Source: Squalus acanthias
Taxonomy: Eukaryota
Direction: 5' to 3'
DNA: 64,000 nucleotides
Assembly (NCBI GenBank): GCA_030390025.1
Contig: CM059432.1
Coordinates: 47,432,001-47,496,000 of the forward strand
Within the stretch, counting starts at the first letter, position 1, and every line of letters begins with the position of its first letter. Both the position numbers and the translations under genes were made by a program. This document shows positions 19,881 through 45,445 of this stretch, in pieces. The notes below the pieces were generated by a model. The model had not been told where the DNA came from, did no database searches, and saw nothing but the letters and a program-made list of their open reading frames with translations.

Positions 19881-21437
19881 GAACATAAACATAAGAAGTA
19901 GGAGCAGGAGTAGGCCATATGGCTCCTCGAGCCTGCTCCGCCATTCAATAAGGTCATGGCTGATCTTCAACCTCAACTCCACTTTCCTGCACTATCACCA
20001 TATCCCTTGATTCCCCCAGAGTCCAAAAATCTATCGATCTCAGTCTGGAATATACTCAATGACTCAGCATCCACAGCCCTTTGGAGCAGAGAATGCCAAA
20101 GATTCACAACCCTCCGAGTGAAGAAATTCCTCATCTCAGTCTTAAAATGCTGACCCCTTATCCTGAGACTATGCCTCCTAGTTGTAGACTCTCCAGCCAG
20201 GGGAAACAATCTCTCCGCATCCTGTCAATCCCCCTCAGAATCTTATGTTTCAATGAGATCACCCCTCATTCTTCTAAACTCCAGAGAGTATAGGCCCAAC
20301 ATTCTTCTAAACTCCAAAGAGTATAGGCCCAATCTACTCAATCTCTCCTCATAGGACAACCCTCTCATCCCAGGAATCAATCTAGTGAACCTGTGTTGAA
20401 CCGCTTCTAAGGCAAGTATATCCTTCCTTAGATAAGGAGACCAAAACTGTCCACAGTACTCCAGGTGTGGTCTCACCAAAGTCCTGTACAATTGTAGCAA
20501 GACTTCCTTATTCTTATACTCCAACCCCTTTGTAATAAAGGCCAACATGCCATTTGCCTTCCTAACTGCTCGTTGTACCTGCATGTTAACCTGCACCAAC
20601 ATTTAATAGTTTCTCACAATTTAAAAAAAAACAATTCTGTTTTCCTATTCTTCCTACCAAAGTGAATCACCTCACATTATACTCCATCTGCCACCTTATT
20701 GCCCACTCACTTAACCTGTCTATATCCCTTTGCAGGCTCTTTGTGTCGTCCTCACAGCTTACTGTCCCACCTAGCTTTGTATCGTCAGCAAACTTGGATA
20801 CATTACACTCGGTCCCTTCATCCAAGACATTAATATATATTGTAAATAGTTGAGGCCCCATCACTGATCTTTGCGGCAACCCATTAGTTACAGCCTGCCA
20901 ACCTGACAATGACCAGTTTTTCCCTACTCTCTGTTTTCTGTCCATTAACCAATCCTCTATCTAAGCTACTATATTACCTCCAAACCCATGAGCCCTTATC
21001 TTGCATAACAACCTTTTATGTGGTACCTTAACAGGAACACACTCCATCCACTGGTTCCTCATTATCTACCCTGCTAGTCACATCCTCAAAAACAATAAAT
21101 TTGTCATACACAATTTCCCTTTCATAGAATCATGTTTACTCTGCCTAACCATATTATGATTTTCTAAGTGCCTGGTTACCACTTCCTTAATAATACATTC
21201 CAGCATTTTCCCGACGACTGATGTCAGGCTAACTGGCCTATAGTTCCCGGTTTTCCATCTGCCTCCTTTCTTGAATAGCGGTGTTATATTTGCTACCTTC
21301 TAGTCTGCTGGGATCATTCCAGAATCTAGGGAATTTTGGAAGATAACAACCAATACATCCACTACCTCTGCAGCCACCTCTTTTAGAACCCTAGGATTTA
21401 AGCCAACGGGCCCAGGGGATTAGTTGGCTTTTAGTCC
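19881..21437 (-). mobile_element. CR1 LINE, degenerate ORF2 3' half
   Basis: FADD, LVRPHLEYC motifs, 3' tail. Confidence 0.9.
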
Positions 21438-22146: not shown

Positions 22147-22670
22147 CATAAGAACATAAGAAATAGGAGCAGGAGTAGGCCATATGGCCCCTCGAGCCTG
22201 CTCCGCCATTCAATAAGATCATGGCTGATCATCCACCTCAACTCCACTTTCCCGCCCGATCTCCAAATCCCTTGATTCCCCTAGAGTCCAAAAATCTATC
22301 TATCTCAGCCTTGAATATACGCAAAGACTCAGCATTCAAAGCCCTCTGGGGCAGAGAATTCCAAAGATTCACAACCCTCCGAGTGAAGAAATTCCTCCTC
22401 ATCTCAGTCTTAAATGGCCTACCCCTTATCCTGAGACTATGCCCCCTAGTTCTAGACACTCCAGCCAGGGGAAACAACCTCTCAGCATCTACTGTGTCAA
22501 TACCCCTCAGAATCTTGTATGTTTCAATGAGATCACCTCTCATTCTTCTAAACTCCAGAGAGTATAGGCCCATTCTACACAATCTCTCATGATAGGGCAG
22601 CCCTCTCATCCCAGGAATCAATCTAGTGAACCTTTGTTGCACTGCCTCCAAGGCAAGTATATCCTACCTT
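22147..22670 (-). mobile_element. CR1 3' fragment
   Basis: ORF2 C-terminus and tail. Confidence 0.9.
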
Positions 22671-24572
22671 CAGCCATGGCTGAACAACAATGAATCCAAG
22701 ACTGAAAGTACTAACTAACTATGAAGATAGGCTGATAATTGGAGAAAAGATAATTTAGGGGATCTTTAAAATATCCAGAGTTAAATGTGGTTGTAACCAG
22801 GTTGTTTAAAGCTATTAAACTACCATTATTGTGTCAATACAAAGCAATCCTGATCACACTGAATCCGGGTGTTGAGAGACTACTTGATTATGTGGTCTCG
22901 CACCATTTTGGCTTTGCACAAGGTGGAGCATAACTCCAGTCTAATGCAAGCCCACATTTTAAACTGCCTAGAACTAATAAGACATCTATCTGTAAACTTT
23001 CTATAGAACCTTCATTGTCGCTGGGTCAAAATCCTGAAACTCCCTCCCTAACAGCACTGTGGGAGTACTTTCACCACATGGACTGCAGTGGTTCCAGAAA
23101 GCGGCTCACCACCACCTTCTCAAGGGCAATTAGGGATGGGCAATAAATGCTGGCCTTGCCAGCGACACCCACATCCCATGAACGAATTTTTTTTAAAAAT
23201 TATAAATGATTTTCCCAGGGTAGGGTGGCAAAGCTCTGCACCATGGATCCAAGCATGTATTCAGTCCTCTTTGCGACTGAGTGTTTTGCAGCCAGCAGCA
23301 TAACTTGGATCTACTGGTTGTGCAATGTACTAATGATACTATTAGAACCCAAGCAAAATTAATGATTAAAGGGCAGATAGATAGATGAAGAAAGGTGATA
23401 GATTCTTGGACTCTAGGGGAATCAAGGGATAGGGAGGTCGCTCCTGCTCCTAATTCTTATGTTCTTATGAGAAGCTCCCAAGTGAGACGAGAGATTGAAA
23501 GAGGTCTTGTCCCCCATAGAATAGCAGATATGTGGAATATATTCACATCAAAACCAGTTAATGTTCTGCCAATAAACATATTTGAAAGAGAACTAGACAA
23601 ACATCTGGTCATTATTGAGACTGAACTTTCTCCAGATGGGTACAATCAGATAGATATTCAACTGAAGATTAACCTTCCAGTTCAGCTGGGTTGCAGGAAT
23701 GGATCAGATGTAAATAATATCGATTATAACTTAATAACTTCTCTATAAACCCAATTTTAAAGCAATTGCACATGCACAGTTCTAGTGTTGCTGCAGGTCT
23801 CTGAATTGGTCCCCAAGTTATAAATGGGGTGAATTCCACACGGACTTCAGCGGTCCAAGGTGGCGGCCCACCACCACCTTCTCTGAGTAACTAAGGATGG
23901 GCAATAAATGCAGGGCTTGACAGCGACGCCCACATCCCGAGAATGAATGAAAAATAATTCAGAACACAGGCATTCGCAATACTTTGCATAATCGCTTCTA
24001 CGATTCAAATGGAGTACTTTACCTGTATTTATACGGGAGAAATATGCAATATTTGTGATCCACAAAACACAGCCTCGTTACGTCAGAGATCACATCTGCC
24101 ACTATATAAAAAAAGTTAACAAAAAAGTCGAAGAGCGTACTGCGGCAAACATTTACGGATGTGCAGCAGTTTCCTTTAGACTGTCCCTGGGGTTAAGCCG
24201 ATGCTGAAACTCCCTTGTACAGCAACACCAAAAAATTAAATACTGCCCAGCCTGCGCGACACGAGCACTGCTCCTTGGTAAGACACAGATCAATCGTTTA
24301 CTATTTTTATGCAACAATAATTTCTAGAACTTCCTTTATGCAGGATTAAATAGTAAATAAAGAATTAATCGCGCAGTCTCAGAGAAAATCGTGCACTCTT
24401 GCTTCATATGTGTCGGTGTAATTCACACAGCATTCTTTCGACATTGACTACACCCTGGAAAGACGCACACGGAATATTACATGAAACAAGACATTATGAT
24501 CACTTTTTTTAAAGAAGTAAACTAGCAACAGAGTAAAAGGAGCACAGTAAGACAACAGGAAATCGCACTTAC

Positions 24573-27400: not shown

Positions 27401-28103
27401 TATCAGGAGGGTTCTAGATCATCTCTACTGAGACGTCTGGTGGTCGTGAAAGGCGCTATATAAATGCAAGTCTTTCTTTCTTTATACCAGGATTGAATCC
27501 TTATATTGAGAGCAATGCATTTGGCAGATTTGCCTGCAATATTTCATGTTAGGCCAGCATAGGTAATCCAAGATCTTCCTAGGATATGATAGGTATGCTT
27601 TAGGAATTGGGGAATAATAGGTGGTGGCTGTAGATTTTGTAAGAGTGGGAAATGGAGGCTCTCGGACTGATCCCTGGATGTCTGTAAGTCAGTAATAAAG
27701 TTTGTGAGCCTCTTAGGTGTATACTGTGGAGCTTATGGGCCATATATAAAGTTTAAATTAATGAATACCATTGCATATACCAATATGGTTGACTCTTAAC
27801 TGCCCTTTGAAGTGACCTAGCAAACCACTCAGTTGTATTAAGCAGGGCAACTAGGGATGGGCAATAAATGCTGGCCTTGTCATAATGGCACACATCTCAA
27901 GAATACATTTAAAAAAAATTAAAAGACTTTTGTAACAGACCTTTGACGGCTCTTTGCAAATCTCCAAATTTCAAACACGATAATCCATTAAGAAATATAG
28001 GAGTAATTATTTGATACGTGCACTCCTGACAGGTGATGTTCCCCATTAGGGTTGCAAAGTCAGAAAATTAACCTTATAAATGCAATTAAAACTCAATTGC
28101 CTT

Positions 28104-29456
28104 TGTAGGTGGTTTGCCTTGGTGGTTCGAATCACCTCTCCTACTTAGTTCTAGACGACAGGAATTACGGTGACAGGATTGGAACACAGACAAGTTTTTC
28201 GGACTCAACCGTACGGTGTTTAATAAGGTTAACACACACACCCACCTCCAGTACGTAAATTACCTGGTGGCGTAAAACAAACAGAACAACAATACAACTT
28301 GGCCCGTCGAACAGGCCCCTGTCTCATATTAAGACGCCTAAAATCACACTGTGTTGCTATACAGAGTATAACATGGACTTGTCCCACAAACCCTGGAACA
28401 TACACTATATAATACACACAGAACCTCCCCACTAAGCCCCTCTGGATTGGTTGGGACACACAACACCCCCTCACACAGTACCGGTGGTCTTAAGGATGCG
28501 TGGGCTTGGACAATGCTCACCCCAATTGTCCGTTTTCTTGCTTGCTGCTTCCCTGTGTAAAGCGTGTCTCCTGGTTCAGTATCGCCGATGCAGTATCCAA
28601 GTCCCAGTTTCATTCCTACAGTCGAAGAGCAAGGCGAGGCTCTTGTCGCTCGTGGTGGTTTCTTCTCTCCGTCTCGGATGGAGTGCTCGGTTCTTGGTTC
28701 AGAGATGAGGGCACGCGAAGGCGAGAGCAAGCGAGAGAGAGCGAGAATGGCCAAAGCTGCCTTCTCTTATACCCTAAAAGTTTCATTGATGTCTTTTTAA
28801 TCACCCTTCTTTGTCTGGTTTCCCGCCTTTCGGGGCTATCCCATCTAGGTGCTAGTGTTAATGGCAGATGATAGGCCGCACTTCTTACCCGATCCCGGGT
28901 TAAGTGGTTTCCCATTAGTTTCCAATGGCCCTCCTTTGTCCGGTTCCTGCCTTTCGGGGCTATCCCATCTAGGTGCTAGTGTTAATGGCAGATGATAGGC
29001 CGCACTTCTTACCCGATCCCGGGTTAAGTGGTTTCCCATTAGTTTCCAATGGCCCTCCTTTGTCCGGTTCCTGCCTTTCGGGGCTATCTCATCTAGGTAA
29101 TGGTGTTCATGGCAGATGATAGGCCGCACTTCTTACCCGATCCCGGGTTAAGTGGTTTCCCATTAGTTTCCAATGGCCCTCCTTTGTCCGGTTCCTGCCT
29201 TTCGGGGCTATCTCATCTAGGTAATGGTGTTAATGGCAGATGATGGGCCGCACTTCTTACCCATTGTTTCCCAGAGAACTCTGTCTGCTCAGACATTCTC
29301 CCGTAATCAGTTTGTAGGCCTGGCTGGAATCTCCCGTCCATGACGAACACCTGGGCCCCTCCCATCTTCTCCAAACAGGCTGCTGGTCAATCAGCAGTAA
29401 CAATCATACAAAATGTCCGATACAAAAAATCCTTGGAGCCTGCGCTGATACTTACA
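28104..29456 (-). repeat. 3' LTR (1353 bp), includes a 124-bp tandem array in U3
   Basis: Direct repeat of 37669-39236. Termini TGTAAG...CCTACA on the minus strand. Preceded by the PPT. Confidence 0.95.
28825..29262. repeat. U3 tandem repeat, 3 full 124-bp units plus a ~66-bp partial unit
   Basis: gcctttcggggctat starts at 28825, 28949, 29073 and 29197. Confidence 0.95.
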
Positions 29457-29458
29457 GA

Positions 29459-29467
29459 CCCCCCTTT
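29459..29467 (-). promoter_or_regulatory. Polypurine tract AAAGGGGGG
   Basis: Lies 2 nt before the TG of the 3' LTR. Confidence 0.85.
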
Positions 29468-29643
29468 GATATTTCAATGTCCCCACTGGAATATCAAGCA
29501 ACCTTGTCTTCTTCCACTGTGTAGAAGCATCGTGAGCCCCAACCAAGCCGTTCATTACCTTTAAGATCCCCAGGTTCTGTTCTTTAATCACAAATAGATA
29601 CTTATAATACATTTTTACAGAGAACAAAACTTCTGGTTACGCT

Positions 29644-31959
29644 TTAATCAGGGCCTGCCAACGACTGGAGTACCTTGCTTCGCTTTTTACAGGAGAGCCG
29701 TAACAAGTACAATACCACCAAACTCTGTATAATTACAAGAGCGTGTGAACATATCCGGATCCATGGAGGGATCTCGACATTTAACCCAATATCCCACCAG
29801 GGCGGGGAAATCATCCCTTTAATTTCCTCCCCTGTGTCCTGGTTTCGCTGTTCGAGCATGTAAAAATGTTTTTGTGGCAGCTCAACGGCTTTTATTAATT
29901 TTGTGAGGTGTTCGGGCAGAGGCTGTATCTCGTACCCGAACTGTGTAATGTACTGCTGCAGATTCTGTACCGTGTTGTTTACCACGAGGTGTACTGTGGA
30001 TTGCTCTGAAATGGGAAGGATGCGCTCTTGCGCCACCTGAACTGTGTGGGGTTTGAAGCAGGAAGTCGAATCGGTGACCGGGCACCAAGTGTCGTTGTGT
30101 ACCCGATACTGGTCCATGCTTGTCGTGACGCAGTACGTCCCATCGCCCGCGTATGCTACCTGAGGTGGAACGTGGCTCTGGGCCATCACCTCCATGGTGC
30201 AATTAATGGGCTCTGCACTTTCCGATTCAAACCCACACACTGGTCGATCGAACGCGTTCAGGTGCTGGGGACACAATATCACGTGTGCGCCCTGCTTTGG
30301 CACCCCTTGAGGTCAGTGCCGGTCATGGCATGCTCCCACTTTATAACAAATGGTGGGGCCCCATGATACCGCACATGCATCCCGTCCCTCAAGATGCCAA
30401 TGTTATCGACCCGGTATACCGGCACTGGCTGCGGTGACCCGCCCATTACCGGCATCCGCAGTACAATCCCCATAACGGTGTGGTTGGACCGTCCGCAATC
30501 AACTGGGACTGGGTAGGCGTCGGAAGCTAATCGGAGTTGACACGGGCTCATCGAATTATGATACGGGCTGAGCGCTGTGAGGTGCTGGTTGCTAACCCAC
30601 GACGGGACGCGACCTTGTTGTAAGTCCTCCAGATTACTGCGTCCCTCGTTTAGCAACCACGCAACGTACAACACGCACGCATCACTTCTGGCTGCCTGTG
30701 CCGAGGCATTCCTGTCCTCCCGTATCAAATCGTTGATGGTCTTGGCCTGTGTCTCCAGCTCAGCGATGACCTCTTTTAAATGAATGGTCATCGCCTGGTC
30801 TTCTTTTAGCTCCGAACCTTCCACCTCGTTCCCTTCCCCAGTATCTTTCGCAGCTGGTCCTTTAAACTATTAATCTGCACCTGCAGCTGGATATCATCCA
30901 TACTATTGACGAGGGACGTGCCCGTGCTAAAAGCCGTGGCCATGTCATTAACCGTCCCTCGCCTCTGTCTACCCGGATTACCTCTATCGTACGCATCCAT
31001 GCCCTACAGTTTCTCCCGACTCACATCCCCGTAGCTGAGCTCGAAAAATTGGCGGAACATTTCTTTAATAAGGGATTCATAAAACTGCTCCGTCTCCTTC
31101 GGACACCACTCGGGCAGCTGCACCCGGGTTAAATTTAAATGACCGACGCGGCCGCGTAATGTACATCCTGGAATAAAACCTTCCCGGTCGGGACTAGAAC
31201 TAACCCATTCCCTGGGCCTGGTGTGGTGGTGGGACACCTAACTTCTGTCTCCTGTACCGGTGGGGCTGTGGGCAGGGGCTTCCTATCGTGCACTACCAGT
31301 TCCGTGGAATTTATTGTGTTGGGAGGGTCTGGAACTACGCAAGCCTCCAAACTCCGATCCCATCCCATACCGGCCCCGGAATCCTGCCATTGCCATATGA
31401 AAGCAATCGACACACCCGCTGGGCAGATCCGTTCTGACCCCCATACACACACACATAAATCCCCTGTTCCTCCTTCCACCACTTGTTCCAGCACACTTCC
31501 ACTCCCCCCTTCATCCCCGTGATCTGTCGGTACGTGTCGTTCCCCAGTCTTTCCCAGTCCGCTGACCTGTTCCCCTTGTCCTGACTCAACTTCCTAAGCC
31601 ACCACCACCGTCCCAGGGGAATGTGTCCCTTGCATCTTAAGCACACGCGCTTGCCCTCGGTCACCCTAACCCGTGTGGCTGTGATCTTCAGTTGGGGACA
31701 TGGTAGGGAAGCCTCACCGTACGTGAACCCGGCGTGGCTGGTGTATTTCGTCGAATTGGACCCCAGCCACCCTGGCCATCTTCCCTCGTGGAAGTAGGCT
31801 GCCATCCCGTCTGTGTGTCCCCCCCCCCGCCCCCCTAGTTACAGTGGGTGCCCCCACCCCAGTACAGCCGTAGAGGAGGGATGACTCGGTATCCCCTCTC
31901 CTGCTGTGCCCCGTTCCGGCCAACATCAAGATCACACTCAGTCTCAGGGCTGTCTCCAT
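29644..31959 (-). pseudogene. env: Env-like class I fusion glycoprotein (F-type), disrupted by about 5 frameshifts and one stop
   Basis: Signal peptide METALRLSVILMLAG, RQRR furin site at 30959-30970, heptad region, Cys-rich ectodomain, TM (WIRICSHALVIIQSLVVLYLL) and short basic tail, stitched across ORF fragments. Confidence 0.85.
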
Positions 31960-31974
31960 TCCGTCCTCGGCTTC

Positions 31975-31995
31975 CTATGAAACAAAAAGCAACAA
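31975..31995 (-). promoter_or_regulatory. Env splice acceptor (TTGCTTTTTGTTTCATAG|G), 15 nt upstream of the env ATG
   Basis: Polypyrimidine tract plus AG between the pol stop and the env start. Confidence 0.75.
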
Positions 31996-32102
31996 TCCCT
32001 TTCTGTGAGAGGGTTTACCTCCACAGGTCTGGCTTCGTTATATACAAGAACTATGTACATTAAGACCATGTATATCACTACCCGTGTTGCCGGGTGCCTC
32101 CG

Positions 32103-35100
32103 CTAAGGCTCTTCTCGCCGGGGCCTTTTGCGGCTCACGGTCGGCGTGTAAGGAGGCGTCCACTGCGTCCTCGGCCGTGGGACCCTACTGCTCCTCCTTA
32201 CTGTCCCGACCACCGGGTCATCGTCGTCCCAAATCATGGGAGGAAGACCCGCGTCCACCATGCTCATTATTGGGCCTTGGTGTCGTTTTACTTTTGTTGT
32301 TCTCTCCCCTGGGTTAAACCGCTTGCACTGGTTAATATGGAGATACTTTGTGCGTTTTGGGAGTTTAACCATGTACACCATGGGGCTTGCCTTGTCCACT
32401 ATGCTATACGGCCCCATGTATAGTGGCTCAAATGCCCCTACCCAGGCATAGTTCCGTACCATTACCTGGTCTCCCACCTTCCACTCGTGGGTTTTCTGGG
32501 GCTCGAGCAGCAACTGATTTTTCCGGTGCTGGTTCCCCATGTTACTGGCTGCCTGCCAGTGAATCTGTTTTAATTTATCATACAGATTCTGTACAAACTT
32601 GTCCCGGTTCACTTCCCGGACTTGGGCTTCCATTAGGACCGGTGCCAAAACGTGAGTGGGAGTGCGCATGACCCTCCCGGTCATGAGCTCATGCGGGGAA
32701 TACCCTGTGCTTCTGGAGAGGCTGGCCCGGACAGCCATTAAAGCTAACGGCAGGACCTCATCCCACTTTTTCGGGGACGACCCTGTCTCTTTCCTTAGCC
32801 TTTCTTTAATCGTCCGGTTAAAGCGCTCCACAACCCCCAATGACTGTGGGTTATGAGCCACATGGCACTTCCCCTCAATCCCTAAAAACTTCAAGGTGGC
32901 CTGCATTACTTGCCCCGTGAAATGACTCTCTTGGTCGGACTCCACAACCTGTGGCAGTCCCCACCGGGAGAACATTTCCTTTACCAGAATCCTTGCCGTC
33001 GCCAAAGCCGTGGCTGCTCGGCAAGGGAAGGCTTCCACCCACTTGGAGAACACGTTCACCAGGACTAGGCAGTATTTGTTACCTGCCTGTGTGGTGGGTA
33101 GTGGTCCGATGTAATCGACCTGGAGGGACTGCCATGGTCCCTCTACCCTCCTTGTGTGTCCTATGGGGACTTTCCTACGCTGAGGATCGGGGTTGTTTGC
33201 TGCGCACACCAGGCAGTCCGTGCAAAAGTCGTGGACATCCTCCCTGACTTGCGGCCACCACTCTGCCTGTTCTACCCTCTGCCAGGTAGTTTCCGGCCCT
33301 GGGTGTCCCGCTCCTGGGCCCCCGTGGGCCAACTGGAGGAATTCCCTCTGGTACCGTTTGGGAACTATCCACCGATCCCCTTTAAATAGCATCCCCTCTT
33401 TAACGGTAATGTCCGCTGCTCCGAACGGACCCTCTACCTGTTCACCCTTTTCCTTCTTCCCCAGGATAGCCTTAAGGACGGGATCCTGGGCTTGGACTTG
33501 CTTTAAGTCCGGGGCCAAAGTTACCCCCGGTGTTCCTCCCTTGTCCCGGATTTCTGCTACCGGGCCTACTTCATAGGGATCCCAGAACTCTCCTTCCCTG
33601 GCCCCCTGCTTGGCCAACTCGTCGGCCCTTTGGTTACCTTCCCCTCTGGGCTCTGTCTTAGAGTGGGCCTTGACCTTATGTATATAGTGATCTCCCCGGG
33701 TGCCCGTGACCTCCAAAATCCTCCCTAGCAGCAGTGCTGTTGCTAGAGGCTTCCCATCCGCGGATTTAGAACCGCACCGAGCCCAGATGGCCAGGTACTC
33801 GGTGCACGAATTACTTGTAAACATGGAATCCGAGTAGATGTTGTAGGGGGTGGGGAACTCATTGGGGTTGGTCACCACATACACCACCACCGCCAGTTCG
33901 GCGTGCTGAGCGCTCAGGGTGCTGGGGAGTTTAAGGGCTTTAGCTATCTTAGCCATGGGGTCATAAATCCCGCACCCGGTGAAGCGCTCCCCCTTTGCTA
34001 CCGAACTGGACCCGTCCACGTAAATGTCCCGGCCCATCAGGTGTAACCCGGCCCGGAACCCGACATCCACGTCCCATACCCCTTCTACCGTACCCGTGTG
34101 GGCCGTACCTGGGTAAATCAAATTCGCTGCCAACTTGGGCTCGGTCAATCCCTGCACTCTCAGATTCATCTGCGAGAGCAATAAAGTCCAGCGAGCAATG
34201 CGAGCACTGCTCACTGTCCCGTCCTTTATTCTCCCGTCCAACAACATCTGAGTGGGGGTATGGTGGGTGAGTAGAACTATCAGGGATGATTCCGTAAAGA
34301 GCTGTGAGAGCTTTACGGCCCACTGCGTGGCCAGGAGATACATCTCACAGTTGTAATATCCCCGTTCTACCTCGGTGAGAACCCTTGAGGAGTAGACCGC
34401 GCCAAGCTATCCCCGCTGGCTGCTACCTCTAAAAAGAATTCCTCCCCACCGTTGATGGCCCCCAGTGCGGGAGCTGTCTGCAAATCCTCCTTGAGGCGTG
34501 TGAACGCTTCCTGGCAGTTCTGGTCCCACTCCCACCCGACTCCCTTGCAGAGGAGCCGAAGCAGAGGGGCTGCCGTGGCTGCGTAACCCTCAATAAAATC
34601 CCTGCAGTACCCTGTGAGTCCCAGGAAGGATCTTACCCCTGTTACGTCCTTGGGGACTGGTAACTCCTGTACTGCCTTTCTTTTCGCCTCATCTATGGCC
34701 CTTTCCCCTGCCCTTACCGTCAGCCCGAGGAATTTGACTTCCTCGCGGCCGATCTGGGCTTTCTTCGGGTTTACTTTAAACCCGGCCTCCCTCAGCAGCT
34801 CGAGCAGCTCGGCCAGCAGTGGCCCATACTCCTCCCCCTCGGCGGAGAACAAAAGCAAGTTGTCCACATACTGTACTAGCTGCTGAGGTCGGCTAAAACC
34901 CTTTAAGGCGTCCTCCATACACTGGTGGAATATGGAAGGGCTGTTATGAAAACCCTGGGGAAGGCATGTCCAGGTGTACTGTTGCCCTTTAAAAGTAAAG
35001 GCAAACTTGTATTGGTCTTCCCTTTTTAGAGGAATCGACCAAAACCCATTGGAGATATCCAGCACCGTAAAAGTGGTTGCGGTCGCTGGAATGCTCCCTA

Positions 35101-35949
35101 TCAGATTGGCAACAGCCGCGACTGTGGGCGCGCAGGCTGGGATGTTTTTATTGAGCACCCGATAGTCAACGGTGGCTCTCCACGACTGGTCGGGTTTCCT
35201 AACCGGCCAGAGTGGTGAGTTCACATGGGTGGCTATCGGCCTCAACACCTCCTGTTCTACCAGGGATCCCAGTGCCGTTTCCAAGTCGGCTTCTGCCTCT
35301 CTGGGGAAATTATACTGCTTTTGTGGCCGTGACATGGGGTCCCCATGTACTCGGACTTCTACCCCTGTCACCCGGCCACAGTCGTGTTTGTGCGTGGCGA
35401 ACAATGCGAGATTGTCTCTCACGTTCGCCTGATACTTGGCTGGGGTATTACTGACCAATTGCTCCAGGTCGTAACTCCCCTTAGGCTTCATCATGCACAC
35501 GCTACCCCTTCCTTCCCCATCCTTAGGGATTACTAGAACTTCTCCCTCCTTATCGGAACTCACCGCTCCCCAAAGGCAGTGATTCCTCAAATCCACTATT
35601 ATATGATGGGCTAACATAAAGTCGGCCCCTAGGACTCCTGACCCTGGCTGTTCCCACTTTATTAGGACGCATTTCCACTTGGTGTGGAGGGATCCTAAAT
35701 CTATGGCCAAAGGTTTGCACATTGCCCCCGCCTGCTCGTTCCCTGTGAACCCCACGAGACTGAATGGGATCCTGCTAGACCAGGGTGAGTTGGTCGGGTC
35801 CCTTGAATGGATCACCGTGCTCGAGGCCCCGGTGTCCACCAAGTCACCAAGTACTTCCCGTGTACCGTCTCCACCCCCATCTTCACACAAGGTCTGCCCC
35901 ACTCATCGTACGTGAGCGGACACAGGTACTCAGGCTGGGCGCGCTCTAG
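32103..35949 (-). pseudogene. pol: Pol (protease, RT, tether, RNase H, integrase), disrupted
   Basis: LVDTGA protease; LPQGFHNSP and YVDN (YVDD with D>N) RT; IYVDGSS/AQHAEL/IYSDS/KVKAH/GNQRAD RNase H; HHCC, D-D-E and GPY integrase. Frameshifts at 35837-35852 (8-bp duplication) and near 34400 (deletion). Confidence 0.92.
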
Positions 35950-37623
35950 TCAGGGCATTGGGCATATGGGAGCGGTCGGGATCACACTGCTCGCGGCAGC
36001 GTCTACCCTCCCTTTCTCCTGCACAAAAACCGTCCGAAGGGCAGCCACCAGAACGTCAAACGGTTCCCTGGTCACCCCCTTCGCCTCGACAGTCTGTGCC
36101 TTTTGCACCAGAGGATCCCCTCGGCCTTGCCCCTTTTTCTGGGTCGGGCACTCTCGCCTCCAGTGTCCCGTCTTCCCACACCCGAAACATGTCCTTGCCT
36201 TTTCTGCACTAACCCCTTCCTGACGCCATTCCTCCCTGCTACCCTCACTGGCCTTTCTCTCATGTACCTTGCCTTTATTGGGTTTGACCTCCTCCTCTGA
36301 ACCGGTTTTAAAGACCAGGTTCATCTTACGGAGCACGTCGGCCTCCGTATTTGCGAGGTCCTCAGAGCCAAACCAGGCTTCTGCTTTTGCCCTTATTCGT
36401 GGCAAACTGTTTGCCACGAGGGTCCTGAGCCAGTGATTCCTGGGGCCCCCTTGCAGCTGTAACCTGTCCAGTATCCCACCCGTGGCCTTTCCGTATACCG
36501 GCCATAGCCTGTCTGCTGCCTGTGGTGCTTCGCCAGCCAGCTGCAGCGTTCTCTCCACTCGGGAGAACGGACTACCCTGGGTATGTCCCATGGCTCTCAG
36601 GATTTCCTCCTTTAAACCTGCCGTGGTTCCCTGCCCCAGCTCGGTGGCTGCGGACAGGGCCTGGTACAATTTTCCATCCAGGGAAAATAGTAACAACCTG
36701 TGAGTTTCGCCCTCACTACACCTATTGATCCCTCCAATATGCTCCACTTCCATGAAGTGAACGGAGGGGTCCCCTTCTTTTCTTAATTTGGGCATGCTTG
36801 CTATCATAGCCTGCAGTTGTGGGGTGGTAAACGGGACCACGTAATCGCTCTGCAGCGGGCCCTGAGCACCGTCTTGTGCGGGCGGACCATACTTTTGCTG
36901 CCGCAGAGGACACATCAGTCCCGGTGGTGCTTCTGGCGTCGGTCGGGATTCCCTATCCCAGACCCAATCCTCAGACCCCTGTCTTTCCTCTTCCCAGTCC
37001 ACCTGAGCTTCCCCCGAGGTTGTTAAGCAAACCATCCCTCTGGCTTTGGACAGGGCTTGGGTCAGACTTTTTATCCTTTCCTCGCAGGGTCCGTGGTTTA
37101 AATCCTCGTACCCCCTGTTCCTGGCTACCCTGTAGGCTGCCTTTATGTCTCTAAGCTGCCCCTCTAGCCCGTCAACTTTACCCGTTGAGCGGGCGTTCTC
37201 TGCCCGTACAGCCTGCTCATTGAGCTTGGCCTCGGTGACCTGGCACTGCAGGTACTCCCCGGTGTTACGGGAGGTTTCCTCCTGTGCGCGTTTCTCCTGT
37301 CTTTCCTCGCGCAGCTCCTCCATTAATCTATTACCCACTATCCCCCTTGCGTCTGACTTTTCTTCTGATTCCCTGAGCTCGGCCTGCAGCTTTCCAACCA
37401 GCTCCCTGAGCAGTTGGACCTGTTTCTGCAGGCACAGGAGCCAAATCGCTTTTTCCTTAGACTTTTTATGCTCCTTGCTCCCTGTCCATCCCGCAGCCCT
37501 ATCCTGAGGACTGTCAGAACGCAACATCTCCAGCACCCACTGCTGAGACACATTAACTTTACCAAACACATAGGAGGAAATTCTGTCCCCCATTGCAGAT
37601 CTCTTGCCCTCTAAACTTTCCAT
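35950..37623 (-). CDS. gag: Gag polyprotein, intact ~557 aa (coiled-coil N-terminal region, capsid-like region, CCHC knuckle, PTAP)
   Basis: Uninterrupted ORF from first ATG at 37623. CFGCGKTGHWRREC = CX2CX4HX4C. C-terminal PTAP. Confidence 0.9.
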   Translation of the reverse strand: MESLEGKRSAMGDRISSYVFGKVNVSQQWVLEMLRSDSPQDRAAGWTGSKEHKKSKEKAIWLLCLQKQVQLLRELVGKLQAELRESEEKSDARGIVGNRLMEELREERQEKRAQEETSRNTGEYLQCQVTEAKLNEQAVRAENARSTGKVDGLEGQLRDIKAAYRVARNRGYEDLNHGPCEERIKSLTQALSKARGMVCLTTSGEAQVDWEEERQGSEDWVWDRESRPTPEAPPGLMCPLRQQKYGPPAQDGAQGPLQSDYVVPFTTPQLQAMIASMPKLRKEGDPSVHFMEVEHIGGINRCSEGETHRLLLFSLDGKLYQALSAATELGQGTTAGLKEEILRAMGHTQGSPFSRVERTLQLAGEAPQAADRLWPVYGKATGGILDRLQLQGGPRNHWLRTLVANSLPRIRAKAEAWFGSEDLANTEADVLRKMNLVFKTGSEEEVKPNKGKVHERKASEGSREEWRQEGVSAEKARTCFGCGKTGHWRRECPTQKKGQGRGDPLVQKAQTVEAKGVTREPFDVLVAALRTVFVQEKGRVDAAASSVIPTAPICPMP

Positions 37624-37646
37624 GATCCTGTTCACACAACCTATCG

Positions 37647-37664
37647 TCCTGCCGGCGGTCGCCA
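37647..37664 (-). promoter_or_regulatory. Primer binding site TGGCGACCGCCGGCAGGA (tRNA-Ser-like)
   Basis: TGG-initiated 18-mer 4 nt after the 5' LTR end. Shares TGGCG...CGGCAGGA with the complement of a tRNA-Ser 3' end (recalled, imperfect match). Confidence 0.7.
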
Positions 37665-37668
37665 ATTC

Positions 37669-39236
37669 TGTAGGTGGTTTGCCTTGGTGGTTCGAATCAC
37701 CTCTCCTGCTTAGTTCTAGACGACAGGAATTACGGTGAACAGGATTGGAACACAGACAAGCTTTTCGGACTCAACCGTACGATGTTTAATAAGGTTAACA
37801 CACACACCCGCCTCCAGTACGTAAAATGCCTGGTGGCGTAAAACAAACAGTACAACAATACAACTTGGCCTGTCGAACAGGCCCCTGTCTCATGTTAAGA
37901 TGCCTAAAATCACACTGTGTTGCTATACAGAGTATAACATGGACTTGTCCCACAAACCCTGGAACATACACTATATAATACACACAGAACCTCCCCACTA
38001 AGCCCCTCTGGATTGGTTGGGACATAGAAACATAGAAGATAGGAGCAGGAGTAGGCCATTCGGCCCCTCGAGCCTGCTCTGCCATTCGATGAGATCATGG
38101 CTGATCATCCAAACTCAGTACCCTGTACCTGCCTTCTCCCCATATCCCTTGATACCTTTAGCTTTAAGAAATATATCTAACTCATTTTTGAATATATTTA
38201 ATGACTTGGCCTCAACTACCTTCTGTGGTAGAGAATTCCACAGGTTCACCACTCTCTGGGTGAAGAAATTCTTCCTCATTTCTGTCCTAAATGGCTTACC
38301 CCTTATCCTTAGATTATGACCCCTGGTTCTGGACTCTCCGACCATCGGGAACATTCTTCCTGCATCTAGTTTGTCCAGACCTGTCAGAATTTTATATGTT
38401 TCGATGAGATCCCCTCTCATTCTTCTATACTCCAGCGAGTATAAGCCCAATCGACCCAATCTCTCCTCATATGTCATTCCTGCCATCCCAGGTATCAGCC
38501 TTGTGAATCTTCGCTGAACTCCTTCCATGGCAAGAACATCCTTCCTCAGATAAGGCGACCAAAACTGCATACAGTACTCAAGGTGTGGTCTCACCAAGGC
38601 CCTGTACAACACCCCCTCACACAGTACCGGTGATCTTAAGGATGCGTGGGCTTGGACAATGCTCACCCCGATTGTCCGTTTTCTTGCTCGCTGCTCCCCT
38701 GTGTAGAACGTGTCTCCTGGGTCCGTATCGCCGATGCAGTATCCAAGTCCCAGTTTCGAGGTTCGTTCCTCCAGTCGAAGAGCAAGGCGAGGCTCTTGTC
38801 GCTCGTGGTGGTTTCTTCTCTCCGCCTCGGACGGAGTGCTCGGTTCTTTGTTCAGAGATGAGGGCACGCGAAGGCGAGAGCAAGCGAGAGAGAGCGAGAA
38901 TGGCCAAAGCTGCCTTCTCTTATACCCTAAAAGTTTATTGATGTCTTTTTAATCACCCTTCTTTGTCTGGTTTCCCGCCTTTCGGGGCTATCCCATCTAG
39001 GTAATGGTGTTCATGGCAGATGATGGGCCGCACTTCTTACCCATTGTTTCCCAGAGAACTCTGTCTGCTCAGACATTCTCCCATAATCAGTTTGTCGGCC
39101 TGGCTGGAATCTCCTGTCCATCACGAACACCTGGGCCCCTCCCATCTTCTCCAAACAGGCTGCTGGTCAATCAGCAGTAACAATCATACAAAATGTCCGA
39201 TACAAAAAATCCTTGGGGCCTGCGCTGATACTTACA
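37669..39236 (-). repeat. 5' LTR, interrupted by a CR1 insertion and lacking the 124-bp U3 array
   Basis: Aligns to the 3' LTR. Followed on the minus strand by the PBS. Confidence 0.95.
38025..38605 (-). mobile_element. 5'-truncated CR1 LINE inserted in the 5' LTR
   Basis: LYRALVRPHLEYC...NLWNSLP ORF2 C-terminus plus 3' tail. Absent from the 3' LTR. Confidence 0.95.
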
Positions 39237-39494
39237 CCTTGGCTTTGTGAGCTGGATTACCAGGGTTTGTGGTCCACATATGCCCCACTAGCCATAGTTT
39301 GGAGACGCTTGCTGTAATTTAGAAGACTCAACATTAGATGATATGAGACTGATTACTGATCATAAGATAAGTTTTTATGAAGAAAGCCCATAACTTCATT
39401 TGCTTTCTGTTTCAGAATATCATGCCTATTGTTTCCCATAACTCTATTGTCCTGGGCTCAACCATATTTCCTGGCAGACTGTTGCAGGTGTTGA

Positions 39495-41545
39495 TCAGTC
39501 TATTTCAGTGAGAAAGAAAGATTTTAAGAGAAGGGAGCACCATCCGTGGCTAACTAAGGAAATAAAGGATGGTATCAAATTGAAAACGAAGGCATACAAT
39601 GTTGCCAAGATTGGTGGGAGACCAGAGGATTGGGAAATGTTTAAAAACCAGCAAAGGATGACTAAAAAAATAATAAAGAGAGAGAAGATGAATTATGAGA
39701 GTAAACTGGCAAGAAACATTAAAACAGATAGTAAGAGCTTCTACAGGTATATAAAAAGGAAGAGAGTAGCTAAAGTAAACATTGGTCCCTTAGAGGATGA
39801 GACTGGGGAATTAATAATGGGGAATGGGGAAATGGCAGAGACTCTGAACAAATATTTTGTATCGGTCTTCATGGTAGAAGACACTAACAACATTCCAATA
39901 ATGGTTAATCAAGCGACCACAGGGAGGGGGGAACTAAAGACAATCACTATCACTAAGGAAATAGTATTTGGTAAAATAATGGGACTAAAAGACAACAAGT
40001 CCCCTAGACCAGATGGCCTGCATCCCAGGGTCTTAAAAGAAGTGGCTGCAGAGATAGTGGATGCATTGGTTGCAATATACCAAAATTCCCTGGACTCTGG
40101 AGAGGTCCCAGCAGATTGGAAAACCGCAAATGTAACACCCCTATTTAAGAAAAGAGGGAGACAGAAAGCAGGAAACTATAGACCAGTTAGCCTAACATCT
40201 GTAATTGGGAAAATGCTGGAGACCTTCATTAAGGAAGCCGTAGCAGGGCATTTGGAAAATCATAATGCAGTCAAGCAGAGTCAGCATGGTTTTATGAAAG
40301 GGAAATCATGTTTAACAAATTTGCTGGAGTTCTTTGAGGATGTAACGAGCAGGGTGGACAAAGGTGAGCCAGTGGATGTGGTGTATTTGGATTTCCAGAA
40401 GGCATTCGATAAGGTGCCACATAAAAGGTTACTGCATAAGATAAGAGCTCACGGAATTGGGGGTAATATATTAGCATGGATAGAGAATTGGCTAACTAAC
40501 AGAAAGCAGAGAGTCAGGATAAATGGGTCATCTTCCGGTTGGCAAACGGTAACTAGTGGGGTGCCTCAACTATTTACAATCTACATTAATGACTTGGATG
40601 AAGGGACCGAGTGTAATGTAGCCAAGTTTGCGGATGATACAAAGATGGGTGGGAAAGCAAGTGGTGCAGAGGACTCAAAGAATCTGCAAAGGGATATAGA
40701 CAGGCTAAGTGAGTGGGCAAACATTTGGCAGATGGAGTATAATGTGGGAAAGTGCGAAGTTATCCACTTTGGCAGGAAAAATAAAAAAGCAAACTATTAT
40801 TTAAATGGAGAGAGATTACAAAATGCTACAGTTCAGAGGGACCTGGGGGTACTTGTGCATGAAACACAAAAAGTTAGCATGCAGGTACAGCAAGTAATCA
40901 AAAAGGCAAATGGAATTTTGGCCTGTATTGCAAGGGGGTTGGAGTATAAAAGCAGGGAAGTCCTGCTACAACTGTACAGGGTATTGGTGAGACCACACCT
41001 TGAGTACTGCATACAGTTTTGGTCTCCTTATTTAAGGAAGGATATACTTGCATTGGAGGCAGTTCAGAGACGATTCACACGGTTAATTCCAGAGATGAGG
41101 GGGTTGACTTATGAGGAAAGGTTGAGCAGGCTGGGCCTGTACTCTTTGGAATTTAGAAGAATGAGAGGTGATCTTATTGAAACATATAAGATACTGAGGG
41201 GGCTCGACAGGGTAGATGCAGAGAGGATGTTTCCCCTCGTGGGGAAATCTAGAACTTGGGGGCATCGTTTCAGAATAAAGGGTCGCCCTTTTAGAACTGA
41301 GCTGAGGAGGAATTTCTTCTCTCAGAGGGTCGTAAATCTGTGGAATTCTCTGCCCCAGAGAGCCGTGGAGGCTGGGTCATTAAATACATTTAAGGTGGAG
41401 ATAGACAGATTTTTGCGAGATAAGGGAGTGAAGGGTTATGGGGAGCGGGCTGGGAAGTGGCTTTGAGCCCAAGATCAGCCATGATCTTATTGAATGGCGG
41501 AGCAGGCTCGAGGGGCCTATTCCTGCTCCTATTTCTTATGTTTTT
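39495..41545 (+). mobile_element. CR1 LINE, 5'-truncated, with a 652-aa open ORF2 segment (RT)
   Basis: ORF 39508-41466: NYRPVSLTS, LDFQKAFDKVPH, FADD. In-frame deletion of GSVLGPQ. No endonuclease domain. Confidence 0.95.
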
Positions 41546-42490: not shown

Positions 42491-45445
42491 GATGGACGAG
42501 TTAACAGCACAAATAACTATGTATGGGTATGATCTTGTGGCCATCACAGAAACATGGCTGCAGGGTGACAATGACTGGGAACTAAATATGCCAGGGTATT
42601 TAACAATCAGGAAGGACAGGCAGGAAGGAAGGGGAGGTGGGGTGGCTATGTTAATAAAGGAAGGAATCACTAATACAGAGAAATGATATTGGGTCAAAGG
42701 ATCAGGATAATGAAACAGTTTGGGTGGAGATAAGGAATAATAAGGGGAATAAAACACTAGTGGGAGTAGTATATAGGCCTCCTAATAGTTGCAACTCTGC
42801 TGGAAGAAGTATTAATCAGGAAATAGTTGGGGCATGTAATAAGGGAACAGCTATAATTATGGGGGATTTTAACTATCATATTAACTGGACAAATCAAATT
42901 GGGCAGGGCAGCCTTGAGGAAGAGTTTATTGAGTGTCTTAGGGATGGATTTCTTGAGCAGTATGTAACTGATCCTACAAGGGGGCAAGCAACCTTGGACC
43001 TGGTCCTGTGTAATGAGTCAGGATTAATTAATAATGTCCTAGTTAAGGATCCCCTTGGAATGAGTGACCATAACATGGTTGAATTCCATATCCAATTAGA
43101 GGGTGAGACGGTTGGTTCTCAAACAAGCGTACTGAGCTTGAATAAAGGAGACTATGATGGTATGAGAGCGGAATTGATTAAAGTGGACTGGGAAAATAGA
43201 TTAAAGGGTAAGAACATGAGCAGTGGTGTTCATTTAAGGAGTTATTTTACAACTTTCAAAAAAAATATATTCCACTGAGGAAAAAAGGGCGTAAAAGAAA
43301 TGACAGCCATCCGTGGCTAAGTAAAGAAATTAAGGATAGTATCCGACTAAAAACAAGGACATATAAGGTAGCCAAACTTCGTGGGAGGATAGAAGATTGG
43401 GAAGTCTTCAAAAGACAGCAAAAAGTAACTAAAGGATTGATTAAGAAAGGGAAGATAGATTATGAAAATAAATTAGCAAAAAATATAAAAACAGATAGCA
43501 AGAGTTTCTATAGTTATATAAAAAGAAAAAGGGTGGCTAAGGCAAACGTAGGTCCCTTAGAGGATGAGACCGGGAAATTAATGGTGGAAAACATGGAGAT
43601 GGCAAAAATGCTGAACAAATATTTTGTTTCAATCTTTACGGTAGAGGACACTAAGAATATCCCAACACTGGACAAACAGGGGGCTCTAGGGGGGGAGGAG
43701 CTAAATACGATTAAAATCACTAAGGAATTGGTACTCAGTAAAATAATGGGACTCAAGGCGGATAAATCCCCTGGACCTGATGGCTTACATCCTAGGGTCT
43801 TGAGGGAAGTGGCAGTAGGGATTGTGGATGCTTTGGTAATAATTTTCCAAAATTCCCTGGACTCAGCAAAGGTCCCAGCAGATTGGAAAACTGCTAATGT
43901 AACACCCTTATTTAAAAAGGGTAGTAGGCAGAAGGCTGGAAATTATAGACCAGTTAGCCTAACATCTGTGGTGGGTAAAATTTTGGAGTCTATTATTAAG
44001 GAGACAGTAACGGAACATTTAGATAAACATAATTTAATAGGACAAAGTCAGCATGGCTTTATGAAGGGGAAGACATGTCTGACAAATTTGCTTGAGTTCT
44101 TTGAGGACATAACGTACAGGGTGGATAAAGGGGAACCAGTGGACGTAGTGTATTTAGACTTCCAGAAGGCATTCGACAAGGTGCCACATGAAAGATTATT
44201 GCTCAAGATAAAAAATCACTGGATTGGGGGTAATATTCTGGCATGGGTGGAGGATTGGTTATCTAACAGGAAGCAGAGAGTTGGGATAAATGGTTCATTC
44301 TCGGACTGGCAACCAGTAGCCAGTGGTGTTCCGCAGGGGTCGGTGCTGGGTCCCCAACTCTTTACAATCTATATTAACGATTTGGAGGAGGGGACCGAGT
44401 GTAACATATCAAAGTTTGCAGATGATACAAAGATGGGAGGGAAAGTAGAAAGTGAGGAGGACATAAAAAACCTACAAGGGGATATAGACAGGCTGGGTGA
44501 GTGGGCGGAGATTTGGCAGATGCAATACAATATTGGAAAATGTGAGGTTATGCACTTTGGCAGGAAAAATCAGAGAGCAAGTTATTATCTTAATGGCGAG
44601 AAACTGGAAAGTACTGCAGTACAAAGGGATCTGGGGGTCCTAGTGCAAGAAAATCAAAAAGTTAGTATGCAGGTGCAGCAGGTGATCAAGAAGGCCAACG
44701 GAATGTTGGCTTTTATTGCTAGGGGGATAGATTATAAAAACAGGGAGGTATTGCTGCAGTTATATAAGGTATTGGTGAGACCGCACCTGGAATACTGCGT
44801 ACAGTTTTGGTGTCCATACTTAAGAAAAGACATACTTGCTCTCGAGGCAGTACAAAGAAGGTTCACTCGGTTAATCCCGGGGATGAGGGGGTGGACATAT
44901 GAGGAGAGGTTGAGTAGATTGGGACTCTACTCATTGGAGTTCAGAAGAATGAGAGGCGATCATTGAAACATATAAGATTGTGAAGGGGCTTGATCGGGTG
45001 GATGCGGTAAGGATGTTCCCAAGGATGGGTGAAACTAGAACTAGAGGGCATAATCTTAGAATAAGGGGCTGCTCTTTCAAAACTGAGATGAGGAGAAACT
45101 TCTTCACTCAGAGGGTAGTAGGTCTGTGGAATTTGCTGCCCCAGGAAGCTGTGGAAGCTACATCATTAAATAAATTTAAAACAGAAATAGATAGTTTCCT
45201 AGAGCTAAAGGGAATTAGGGGTTACGGTGAGCGGGCAGGAAATTGGACATGAGGCTGAGTTCGGATCGGTCAGGGCCCTGTGGGTGGCGGAGCGGGCCCA
45301 GGGGCTGAGTGGCCGGGTCCTGCTCCTACCTCTTGTGTTCTTTAGATTTGAGGTTAGGATCAGATCAGCCATGATCTTATTGAATGGCGGAGCAGGCTCG
45401 AGGGGCCGATTGGCCTACTCCTGCTCCTATTTCTTATGTTCTTAT
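42491..45445 (+). mobile_element. CR1 LINE with near-complete ORF2 (APE endonuclease + RT), frameshifted, inserted in the minisatellite
   Basis: ITETWL, VYRPP, MGDFN, SDH endonuclease motifs, RT FADD, (TTCTTATG)n tail. Confidence 0.95.

Follow-up and report, generated by a model that had tools for sequence, protein, structure and literature searches.

A decayed endogenous retrovirus of Squalus acanthias from a multi-copy cartilaginous-fish family with an apparently F-like envelope

We analysed 64,000 nucleotides of the Squalus acanthias genome (NCBI GenBank assembly GCA_030390025.1, contig CM059432.1, positions 47,432,001 to 47,496,000 of the forward strand; hereafter the window, in whose own numbering all coordinates are given) and describe here an endogenous retrovirus (ERV) that lies within it on the minus strand. 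In our judgement it is rather likely to be a defective germ-line copy of a multi-copy ERV family of cartilaginous fishes that makes its Gag-Pro-Pol by readthrough, carries an envelope protein (Env) like viral fusion (F) proteins and a reverse transcriptase (RT) like that of snakehead retrovirus (SnRV), and sits on a deep branch of the elements with two RNase H domains, outside both the foamy viruses and class I; it is probably not the lokiretrovirus that the first-pass annotation of this DNA had proposed. F-like retroviral envelopes tie the retroviral entry machinery to negative-strand RNA viruses, and have so far come from foamy viruses and lokiretroviruses. The present family would add a lineage of different architecture, in which a large Ig-like surface subunit (SU) is combined with a canonical, SnRV-like polymerase, and it occurs in sharks and a skate, hosts reported to be free of lokiretroviruses. 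It therefore bears on whether an F-like envelope is ancestral in retroviruses or was captured repeatedly, and on how the deep branches (foamy, SnRV-like, class I and loki) relate to one another.

The provirus spans positions 28104-39236 and is complete in layout. In its own sense direction the order is long terminal repeat (LTR), primer-binding site (PBS), gag, TGA, pro, pol, env, polypurine tract (PPT) and LTR, and a 4-bp target-site duplication, CCTT, can be read from the sequence on either side (28100-28103 and 39237-39240). Indeed, the paired LTRs, target-site duplication, PBS, PPT and gene order listed by the first-pass annotation, which gave no strand, were all found where it had placed them. 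The 3' LTR (1353 bp, 28104-29456, minus strand) and the 5' LTR (1568 bp, 37669-39236, minus strand) were delimited from direct repeats (families D2-D6 for the former), BLAST blocks and, for the latter, reading of the sequence. They align as three BLAST blocks of 94-97% identity and both have TG...CA termini. Their lengths are unequal because a 581-bp dispersed repeat (38025-38605), missing from the other LTR and with copies elsewhere in the window, is inserted in the 5' LTR, and because the 3' LTR has more units of a 124-bp tandem array (28804-29262, 3.7 copies by Tandem Repeats Finder; fewer in the 5' LTR according to the offset of the LTR blocks). The 581-bp repeat entered the 5' LTR after the provirus had integrated. 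Across 1065 aligned positions the LTRs show 37 differences (26 transitions and 11 transversions), a Kimura two-parameter divergence of 0.036, which corresponds to about 8-80 million years depending on the rate, the true rate of the host being uncertain; the slowest rate used is Han's assumption for the elephant shark (PMC4422223).

The 18-nt PBS, TGGCGACCGCCGGCAGGA, lies 4 nt past the 5' LTR (37647-37664, minus strand), and the PPT, AAAGGGGGG, lies 2 nt ahead of the 3' LTR (29459-29467, minus strand), where the PPT-LTR junction reads GGGGGGTC followed directly by the TG of the LTR. A sequence-unrelated LTR element in the same genome (L005, G000:C657:60614-63628) carries an identical 19-nt PBS, 5 nt past its LTR end (…TTACA). 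Since the same site trails the LTR end of an unrelated element, we take it as a real tRNA-complementary site, which means that this primer tRNA serves another retroelement family as well. Reverse transcription would be primed by this host tRNA annealed to the 18-nt site, presumably tRNA-Arg, and SnRV uses a tRNA-Arg primer. The 15-mer complementary to the PBS has five exact matches in the genome. The U5 end of the LTR (28104-28145, plus strand) also holds GGTGGTTCGAATCACC, a hairpin resembling a tRNA T-arm, possibly by chance.

The gag gene comprises 557 codons (35950-37623, minus strand; from the list of open reading frames and Pfam), from an ATG at 37623 to a TGA at 35952-35950. Its product has a single CCHC zinc knuckle (Pfam zf-CCHC, 2e-5) and an N-terminal half that is charged and, judged by eye, coiled-coil-like in appearance. 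Alignment of the window copy with four others of the same family showed that the terminal TGA is kept in all five, and that an 8-bp tandem duplication of two ACTTGGTG units (35837-35852, minus strand), which shifts pro-pol out of the gag frame here, is missing from all four of the others. Because the protease motif DTGAS stands in the gag frame behind this conserved TGA in three of those four, the family has a stop-codon-readthrough layout. Gag-Pro-Pol would then be made by readthrough of the stop codon, as in gamma- and epsilonretroviruses and in snakehead retrovirus.

The pol gene is divided between two open frames on the minus strand. One, of 511 aa (34367-35902), holds the DTGAS protease, the RT (Pfam RVT_1, 1.5e-33) and the start of the tether; the other, of 767 aa (32103-34406), holds the C-terminal part of the tether, RNase H and integrase, with Pfam matches to RT_RNaseH (4e-7), RNase_H (2e-18), Integrase_H2C2 (4e-15), rve (3e-13) and, weakly, SH3_Tf2-1 (1e-4). 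The break between them lies inside the tether (34367-34406, minus strand). In a tblastn search with P0002, an intact relative, query residues 12-490 aligned in one frame and 505-1129 in another, leaving about 14 residues unaligned; it is the sole break in pol relative to P0002, and it divides the RT_RNaseH and RT_RNaseH_2 matches. The first-pass annotation had read a YVD[D/N] active site and a degenerate Ty3-type RNase H followed by a second, retroviral one, and both descriptions held. The RT active site is YVDN in the window copy and YVDD in P0002. Translations set against the alignment show that the Ty3-type RNase H, that is the tether, has lost catalytic residues, reading VAAS where TDAS would stand and LLTHH at the TD motif, and the second RNase H keeps its acidic motifs (DEDD). 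The integrase has HHCC and DDE motifs and a GPY/F-type SH3 domain. Pfam searches of Pol and Env from the window gave no match to MLVIN_C, RVP or TLV_coat. Contigs from two sequencing runs (X17 and X20, from two coded organisms and two studies) join position 33641 to 35675, skipping 2033 bases from RT to RNase H, which points to a subfamily with an internal deletion, or possibly to a processed form, the kind of library behind these runs being only a guess.

To place the family we built trees against shark foamy ERVs (collected through PF03408), shark class I ERVs (through MLVIN_C) and exogenous viruses from IMG/VR. A first scan of viral contigs had returned caulimovirus-like and Ty3-like records and no retroviruses; a scan with retrovirus-weighted patterns supplied nine foamy viruses, one class I virus with a TLV_coat Env (L124) and L114. 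The last is snakehead retrovirus, as its RT equals letter for letter the row labelled '>SnRV' in the alignment of the lokiretrovirus paper. In the RT tree (47 rows, 298 columns, careful search) the elements with two RNase H domains formed a clade apart from Ty3/Gypsy with support of 100/100, and within it the window family fell outside the foamy viruses (100/100) and outside class I plus L124 (100/99). Thus the RT groups inside neither Ty3/Gypsy nor class I, a check that the first-pass annotation had set for its own proposal, and a Ty3/Gypsy element is rejected both on this split and on the presence of the second RNase H. In a quick whole-Pol tree (24 rows, 1175 columns), in which P0002 represented the family, the foamy clade (100) branched first, and the family together with a group of bird genes (87) was sister to SnRV plus class I (91). 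A quick RNase H tree (160 columns) gave a split, supported at 98, between foamy viruses with their endogenous forms (endogenous foamy viruses, EFVs) and the family, class I, SnRV and the bird genes.

The RT of the window is 41.0% identical to that of the bird gene and 40.2% to that of SnRV; class I RTs reach 35-36%, foamy ones 30-35% and Ty3 27%. Searched against PDB, the window RT scored 184 bits to prototype foamy virus (PFV), about 180 to murine leukaemia virus (MLV) and its xenotropic relative XMRV, 136 to Ty3 and 57 to human immunodeficiency virus 2, where the controls gave 288 bits for a shark foamy RT to PFV and 515 bits for a shark class I Pol to MLV. The best PDB match of the integrase was again PFV, at 105 bits. 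SnRV has been described (PMC1224870) as intermediate between epsilon- and spuma-like retroviruses, and the PDB scores and trees would put the window family in that same region. From its sequence the family is probably related to SnRV, which among the exogenous references tested has the highest RT identity to it. The two share the RT stretches LDISNGFWSI and QQYTWT.LPQGFH.SP.IFHQ, dual RNase H domains, a PBS beginning TGGCGA, one CCHC knuckle and a gag-stop-pol arrangement in one frame (the L114 sequence and PMC1224870). In contrast to these likenesses, the family joins SnRV in no tree; the SnRV integrase has a weak MLVIN_C match where that of the family has none and ends in an SH3_Tf2-1-type domain instead; the SnRV Env (1134 aa) is without significant similarity to the family Env; and SnRV has an extra 3' open frame, whereas no accessory frame was seen in the window provirus. 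SnRV-like sequences are on record elsewhere: Han (2015) reported such a lineage, CmiERV lineage I, in the elephant shark (PMC4422223), and Xu et al. (2018) an SnRV-related clade named 'Huo' in all vertebrate classes.

The env gene (29647-31959, minus strand, ATG at 31959) lies in at least six pieces, recovered by three-frame reading, tblastn of the homologues P0001 and P0033, Pfam and motif counts. Five frame changes (31838-31717, 31593-31338, about 31138, 30866-30809 and 30312-30282) and one in-frame stop (31006-31004) interrupt it. The signal peptide, METALRLSVILMLAGTGHS, leads into an SU of about 334 aa that gives a weak Pfam match to Ig_3 and precedes a furin-type site, RQRR (30959-30970, minus strand), found by motif search and aligned with RQRR, RHRR, RRKRR or RSKR of the homologues. 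Downstream of the site come a hydrophobic or Gly/Ala/Ser-rich stretch and then a heptad region. As the first-pass annotation had noticed, the part behind the furin site is long, Cys-rich and devoid of CX6CC: this transmembrane (TM) subunit is about 437 residues long, contains 12 Cys and two heptad regions, and has a WWD motif and a single membrane anchor, WIRICSHALVIIQSLVVLYLLRL (29695-29763, minus strand), read from the translation and conserved in the family alignment, with PPWWD ahead of it and a short basic tail behind. A gamma-type Env is rejected, since motif counts found no CX6CC and Pfam no TLV_coat. At the sequence level no Pfam envelope family and no PDB chain matched either the env pieces or the homologues; PF00523 (the F protein family) had no match in the six window pieces at E<=10 or in 20 homologues at E<=1, and PF03408 (Foamy_virus_ENV) had none in either set. 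One homologue gave a weak Baculo_F match (E 1e-3), and the Env family profile searched against PDB returned coiled-coil noise only.

Env would be a class I fusion glycoprotein in which a signal peptide is followed by the SU of about 334 aa, whose Ig-like region would presumably bind the receptor, and furin cleavage at RQRR would free an N-terminal fusion peptide on the TM subunit. That subunit would run from a long heptad region through a Cys-rich beta-sheet core and a second heptad region to a WW(D/E) membrane-proximal motif and the single anchor, and would thus represent the F-like (subclass Ib) fusion machine of paramyxoviruses, pneumoviruses and foamy viruses and not a short gamma-type TM. 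The order of furin site, fusion peptide, first heptad repeat (HRA), globular core, second heptad repeat (HRB) and membrane anchor is shared with the F proteins of paramyxo- and pneumoviruses, whereas the family Env is encoded by a retrovirus, has no sequence match to PF00523 or to PDB chains of F, and adds at its N terminus an SU of some 200 residues or more that includes the Ig-like region.

Structure prediction lends this reading some support. The protein folded was P0034, an intact homologue of 739 aa from Chiloscyllium, with a 17-sequence family alignment; its model has a pLDDT of 52.5 (core 55-80) and a predicted TM-score (pTM) of 0.36, and a model of P0001 reached a pLDDT of 51, again low confidence. 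Foldseek matched the P0034 model to 223 PDB entries at E<=1e-3, of which ranks 1-49 were all F proteins of paramyxo- or pneumoviruses; the best was that of human parainfluenza virus 3 (3.6e-8), with TM-scores of only 0.2-0.38. Together, the Foldseek and VIA-align matches listed were exclusively paramyxo- and pneumovirus F plus foamy Env. Among predicted viral structures (BFVD) the matches were F0, mononegaviral glycoproteins, baculovirus F, walleye epsilonretrovirus Envs and feline foamy gp130. A profile comparison (hhalign) of the Env family with nine exogenous foamy Envs gave a probability of 70% (E 4e-5) across 143 columns from the Cys-rich core of the TM, and the gamma-type Env control gave 0.13% (E 0.44). 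An F-like (subclass Ib) fold is thus supported, although at a pLDDT of 52.5 membership of that subclass takes the form of a consistent list of matches and not of a reliable structure. The claim of the first-pass annotation that this Env is related to F proteins of the Mononegavirales type stood accordingly in part, in the F-like core seen by Foldseek, VIA-align and hhalign; at the level of a PF00523 sequence match it did not. The walleye epidermal hyperplasia virus 1 and walleye dermal sarcoma virus Envs appeared at BFVD ranks 14 and 17 (E 1e-8 and 6e-8), so the predicted structures hint that the epsilonretroviral Env may also be of the F-like class.

The genome-wide copy count that the first-pass annotation had called for found the 8.1-kb interior in 43 matching stretches at no fewer than 22 loci of the 3.71-Gb assembly, at 92-96% identity; the number of loci is a floor, since 23 of 7784 first-look candidates were scored. 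Such recurrence puts the element far beyond chance. Four other near-full copies whose env was examined are 93.8-95.8% identical, and all five copies, the window's included, have at least one frame change in env, the longest open env stretch per copy ranging from 222 to 651 aa. The window copy itself is defective through its 8-bp duplication, one pol frameshift, YVDN active site, five env frameshifts and one env stop; the locus is an old, decayed, ordinary ERV copy with no sign of function. Beyond this genome, P0002, a protein from a Logan contig, is 69% identical to the window Pol over 81% of the query, and Pol relatives of 71-72% identity are predicted in Heptranchias perlo and Scyliorhinus torazame. 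Env relatives occur in the sharks Pristiophorus (64% identity in P. japonicus), Heptranchias, Heterodontus, Chiloscyllium and Scyliorhinus and in the skate Rhinoraja, with more distant ones in the frogs Pelodytes, Xenopus tropicalis and X. laevis; a third homologue search with the Env alignment added one protein. DNA runs of eight coded organisms carry 32-44% of the sampled words. Short contigs of 90-99% identity, covering 21-28 of 30 interior bins, were found in four runs that are RNA by guess only, and no conclusion on transcription is drawn from them.

Our best reading is therefore a distinct deep branch of the dual-RNase-H clade that is found in sharks and skates and has an F-type Env family to itself. 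Several observations weigh against it. All trees were built without lokiretrovirus, Odin, class II or ERV-L sequences, and the RT tree is a polytomy of four, namely the window family, the bird genes, SnRV with L124 and class I, and the foamy viruses. SnRV joins class I in it (90/78), as in the whole-Pol tree (91), and not the window family. The integrase tree joins the family with the bird 'NYNRIN-like' genes (95), which fits the published link between lokiretrovirus integrase and CGIN1; it held neither an authentic NYNRIN nor a lokiretrovirus integrase, and the bird names (NYNRIN-like, GIN1-like) are those of the source records. In an approximately unbiased (AU) test, a clade of foamy viruses, SnRV and class I that excludes the family cost 7.2 log-likelihood units and was not rejected (p-AU 0.088). 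The protein folded, P0034, is a homologue 30% identical to the C-terminal piece of the window's own, broken Env, and hhalign found no significant similarity between the family Env and that of SnRV, as it found no signal between foamy and SnRV Envs. The comparison with lokiretrovirus RT and Env was made by eye from the text of a PDF supplement. Finally, the primer tRNA was not found: ARAGORN identified no tRNA gene at the nine other loci with the PBS complement (four exact, five with one mismatch).

The main alternative is that put forward by the first-pass annotation, a chondrichthyan lokiretrovirus or its closest sister, standing outside the canonical retroviruses and having taken its Env from an F protein of the mononegavirus type. 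Lokiretroviruses share with the family the LTRs and gag-pol-env order, two RNase H domains of which one is a Ty3-like tether, an F-like class I Env that is not of gamma type and has a furin site, and an integrase with an H2C2 and GPY/F module, which in the family may lie near NYNRIN- or CGIN1-like proteins, as loki integrase does with CGIN1 (PMC7947760); the result of the AU test would also allow the outside position. The tether is comparatively well preserved: it scores 73 and 65 bits in P0002, where class I ERVs reach 48-55 bits. Some RT stretches, for example NSP.WPV.KP...WR.T.DYR.LNKN.P, resemble lokiretrovirus RT by eye. Yet dual RNase H does not discriminate lokiretroviruses because it is common to all retroviruses, and the Ty3-like tether match is not specific to loki-like elements since class I ERV tethers still match RT_RNaseH_2. 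An F-like Env does not single them out either, as foamy Env is F-like according to PMC11468914 and walleye epsilonretrovirus Envs match too. Indeed, the same source describes the core (domains I-III) as common to F, foamy Env and coronavirus S, so fold alone cannot assign the element to lokiretroviruses.

Other features speak against the lokiretrovirus reading, several defining ones being absent. PF00523, the feature that defines the lokiretrovirus Env, is absent from the matches of the six env pieces and 20 homologues, and a strict first look across the genome gave 0 matches, which does not show absence. About 334 aa precede the furin RQRR here, against about 112 before RPKR in the Env text of Loki-Xla and Loki-Xtr; motifs of the frog homologues of this Env family have 0 occurrences in the lokiretrovirus supplement; and gag, TGA and pol stand in place of the single fused Smc/Spc7-Gag-Pol frame of Loki-Xla and Loki-Xtr, the family having no smc-like gene. 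In RT the window reads LPQGFHNSPSIFHQ (LPQGFHNSP) with QYVDN, nearly as SnRV does, a canonical retroviral form, whereas lokiretrovirus RT has CPFGY.NSPAEF with IYVDD. CPFGY occurs 71 times in the text of the supplement, on Loki rows in every passage checked, and is absent from the window RT; identity to Loki-Str is about 33% by eye, against 40.2% to SnRV. The RNase H falls on the non-foamy side of its split, where that of lokiretroviruses is reported to go with foamy viruses. Moreover, the screen of Wang and Han found lokiretroviruses in 0 of 6 chondrichthyan genomes, those of Scyliorhinus torazame, three orectolobiform sharks, a skate and the elephant shark (supplement of PMC7947760, whose main text makes no mention of cartilaginous fish), and two of these negative species, S. 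torazame and C. punctatum, carry relatives of the window family. Membership of the lokiretroviruses is thus not supported, and we consider this alternative improbable.

About equally unlikely, in our estimation, is a recombinant, in which an SnRV- or class I-like gag-pol acquired its env from a foamy-like or loki-like retrovirus or from a mononegavirus, so that Pol and Env have different histories. The domain trees do disagree, with RT in a polytomy, integrase beside the bird NYNRIN-like genes and RNase H on the side of class I and SnRV. Likewise, the Env family is detectably similar to foamy Env and not to that of SnRV; its relatives extend to frogs as well as sharks and skates, where Pol relatives at 69-72% with a named host come only from sharks; and swapping of domains and of env is reported for retroviruses (PMC7947760). 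However, no donor was identified, and one deep lineage with an F-type Env retained from its ancestor accounts for these data as well. Very improbable, and already largely refuted, is a foamy-like (class III, Spumaretrovirinae-related) ERV of the kind that in cartilaginous fish carries an F-like Env with a TM of about 400 aa: PFV gives the best PDB matches for RT and integrase (184 and 105 bits), the NGFW motif of RT and the 4-bp target duplication are common to both, and the Cys-rich core of the long TM, F-like in foamy viruses as well (PMC11468914), is remotely similar in profile (E 4e-5), but the foamy clade (nine exogenous viruses and three shark EFVs) excludes the family in the RT (100/100) and whole-Pol (100) trees, a genuine shark EFV RT reaches 288 bits to PFV against 184, PF03408 has no match in the family although it finds 11 loci elsewhere in the genome, and the CCHC box in Gag, the pol in frame past the gag stop and the lack of a GGGTG PPT-LTR junction are all unlike foamy viruses, for which PMC5210030 gives a Gag without Cys-His box, a separately expressed pol and GGGTG at that junction.

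Epsilonretroviruses (walleye dermal sarcoma and epidermal hyperplasia viruses) and class I elements resemble the SnRV-like, F-enveloped family proposed here in their readthrough gag-pol and QYVDDLL RT motif, and the walleye Envs also match the F-like model in BFVD. Unlike them, the family stands outside the clade of class I and L124 and lacks MLVIN_C, RVP and TLV_coat. In all, F-like Envs are known or indicated for foamy viruses, lokiretroviruses and, by predicted structure, walleye epsilonretroviruses. A larger claim is possible though doubtful, namely that we are dealing with an undescribed major retrovirus lineage of cartilaginous fishes, with Env relatives in frogs and with an F-type fusion protein joined to an Ig-like subunit for receptor binding. 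If so, the F-like (subclass Ib) machine, and not the gamma-type TM, would have been ancestral in early retroviruses and later replaced in lineages that infect amniotes. A literature search, with the supplements of other papers outside its scope, turned up no account of F-like Envs in retroviruses of cartilaginous fish other than the foamy-like ones. Work by Wang, Chen and Cui in 2023 on the foamy viruses of cartilaginous fish may already cover neighbouring shark ERVs.

The bird genes that are the nearest integrase relatives of the family (P0005-P0008 and their cluster members, from ostrich, kiwi, goose and ducks, named NYNRIN-like or GIN1-like) encode a full RT-tether-RNase H-integrase of 1109-1190 aa, with CVSD or CAGD in place of YxDD at the RT active site. 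From these sequences the gene, which is conserved among these birds, has the look of a retroviral pol that was domesticated. An identical copy also appears in a record of Priestia megaterium, where it is presumably a contaminant.

The S. acanthias genome also holds other retroviral families. Foamy EFVs coexist with the family as a separate and abundant one (loci L085 and L099-L113), with at least 142 RT matches and 15506 first-look candidates; their RT reaches 288 bits to PFV, and 11 stretches match PF03408. Further, more divergent foamy-like lineages show 47-58% RT identity. Class I (gamma- or epsilon-type) ERVs with MLVIN_C account for at least 150 matches, as many as there were candidates scored, from 1098 first-look candidates (loci L063-L074 and L091-L098).

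Within the window, the dispersed repeat of about 580 bp that is found in the 5' LTR has at least eight occurrences at 72-93% identity, that one (38025-38605) included; the others lie at 6096-6680 (93%), 22153-22673, 63039-63588, 40976-41517, 19887-20487, 15975-16320 and 44772-45239. Directly adjoining the provirus, a 674-aa open frame on the plus strand (39442-41466) carries an RVT_1 domain (1.6e-24) and is probably a non-LTR retrotransposon.

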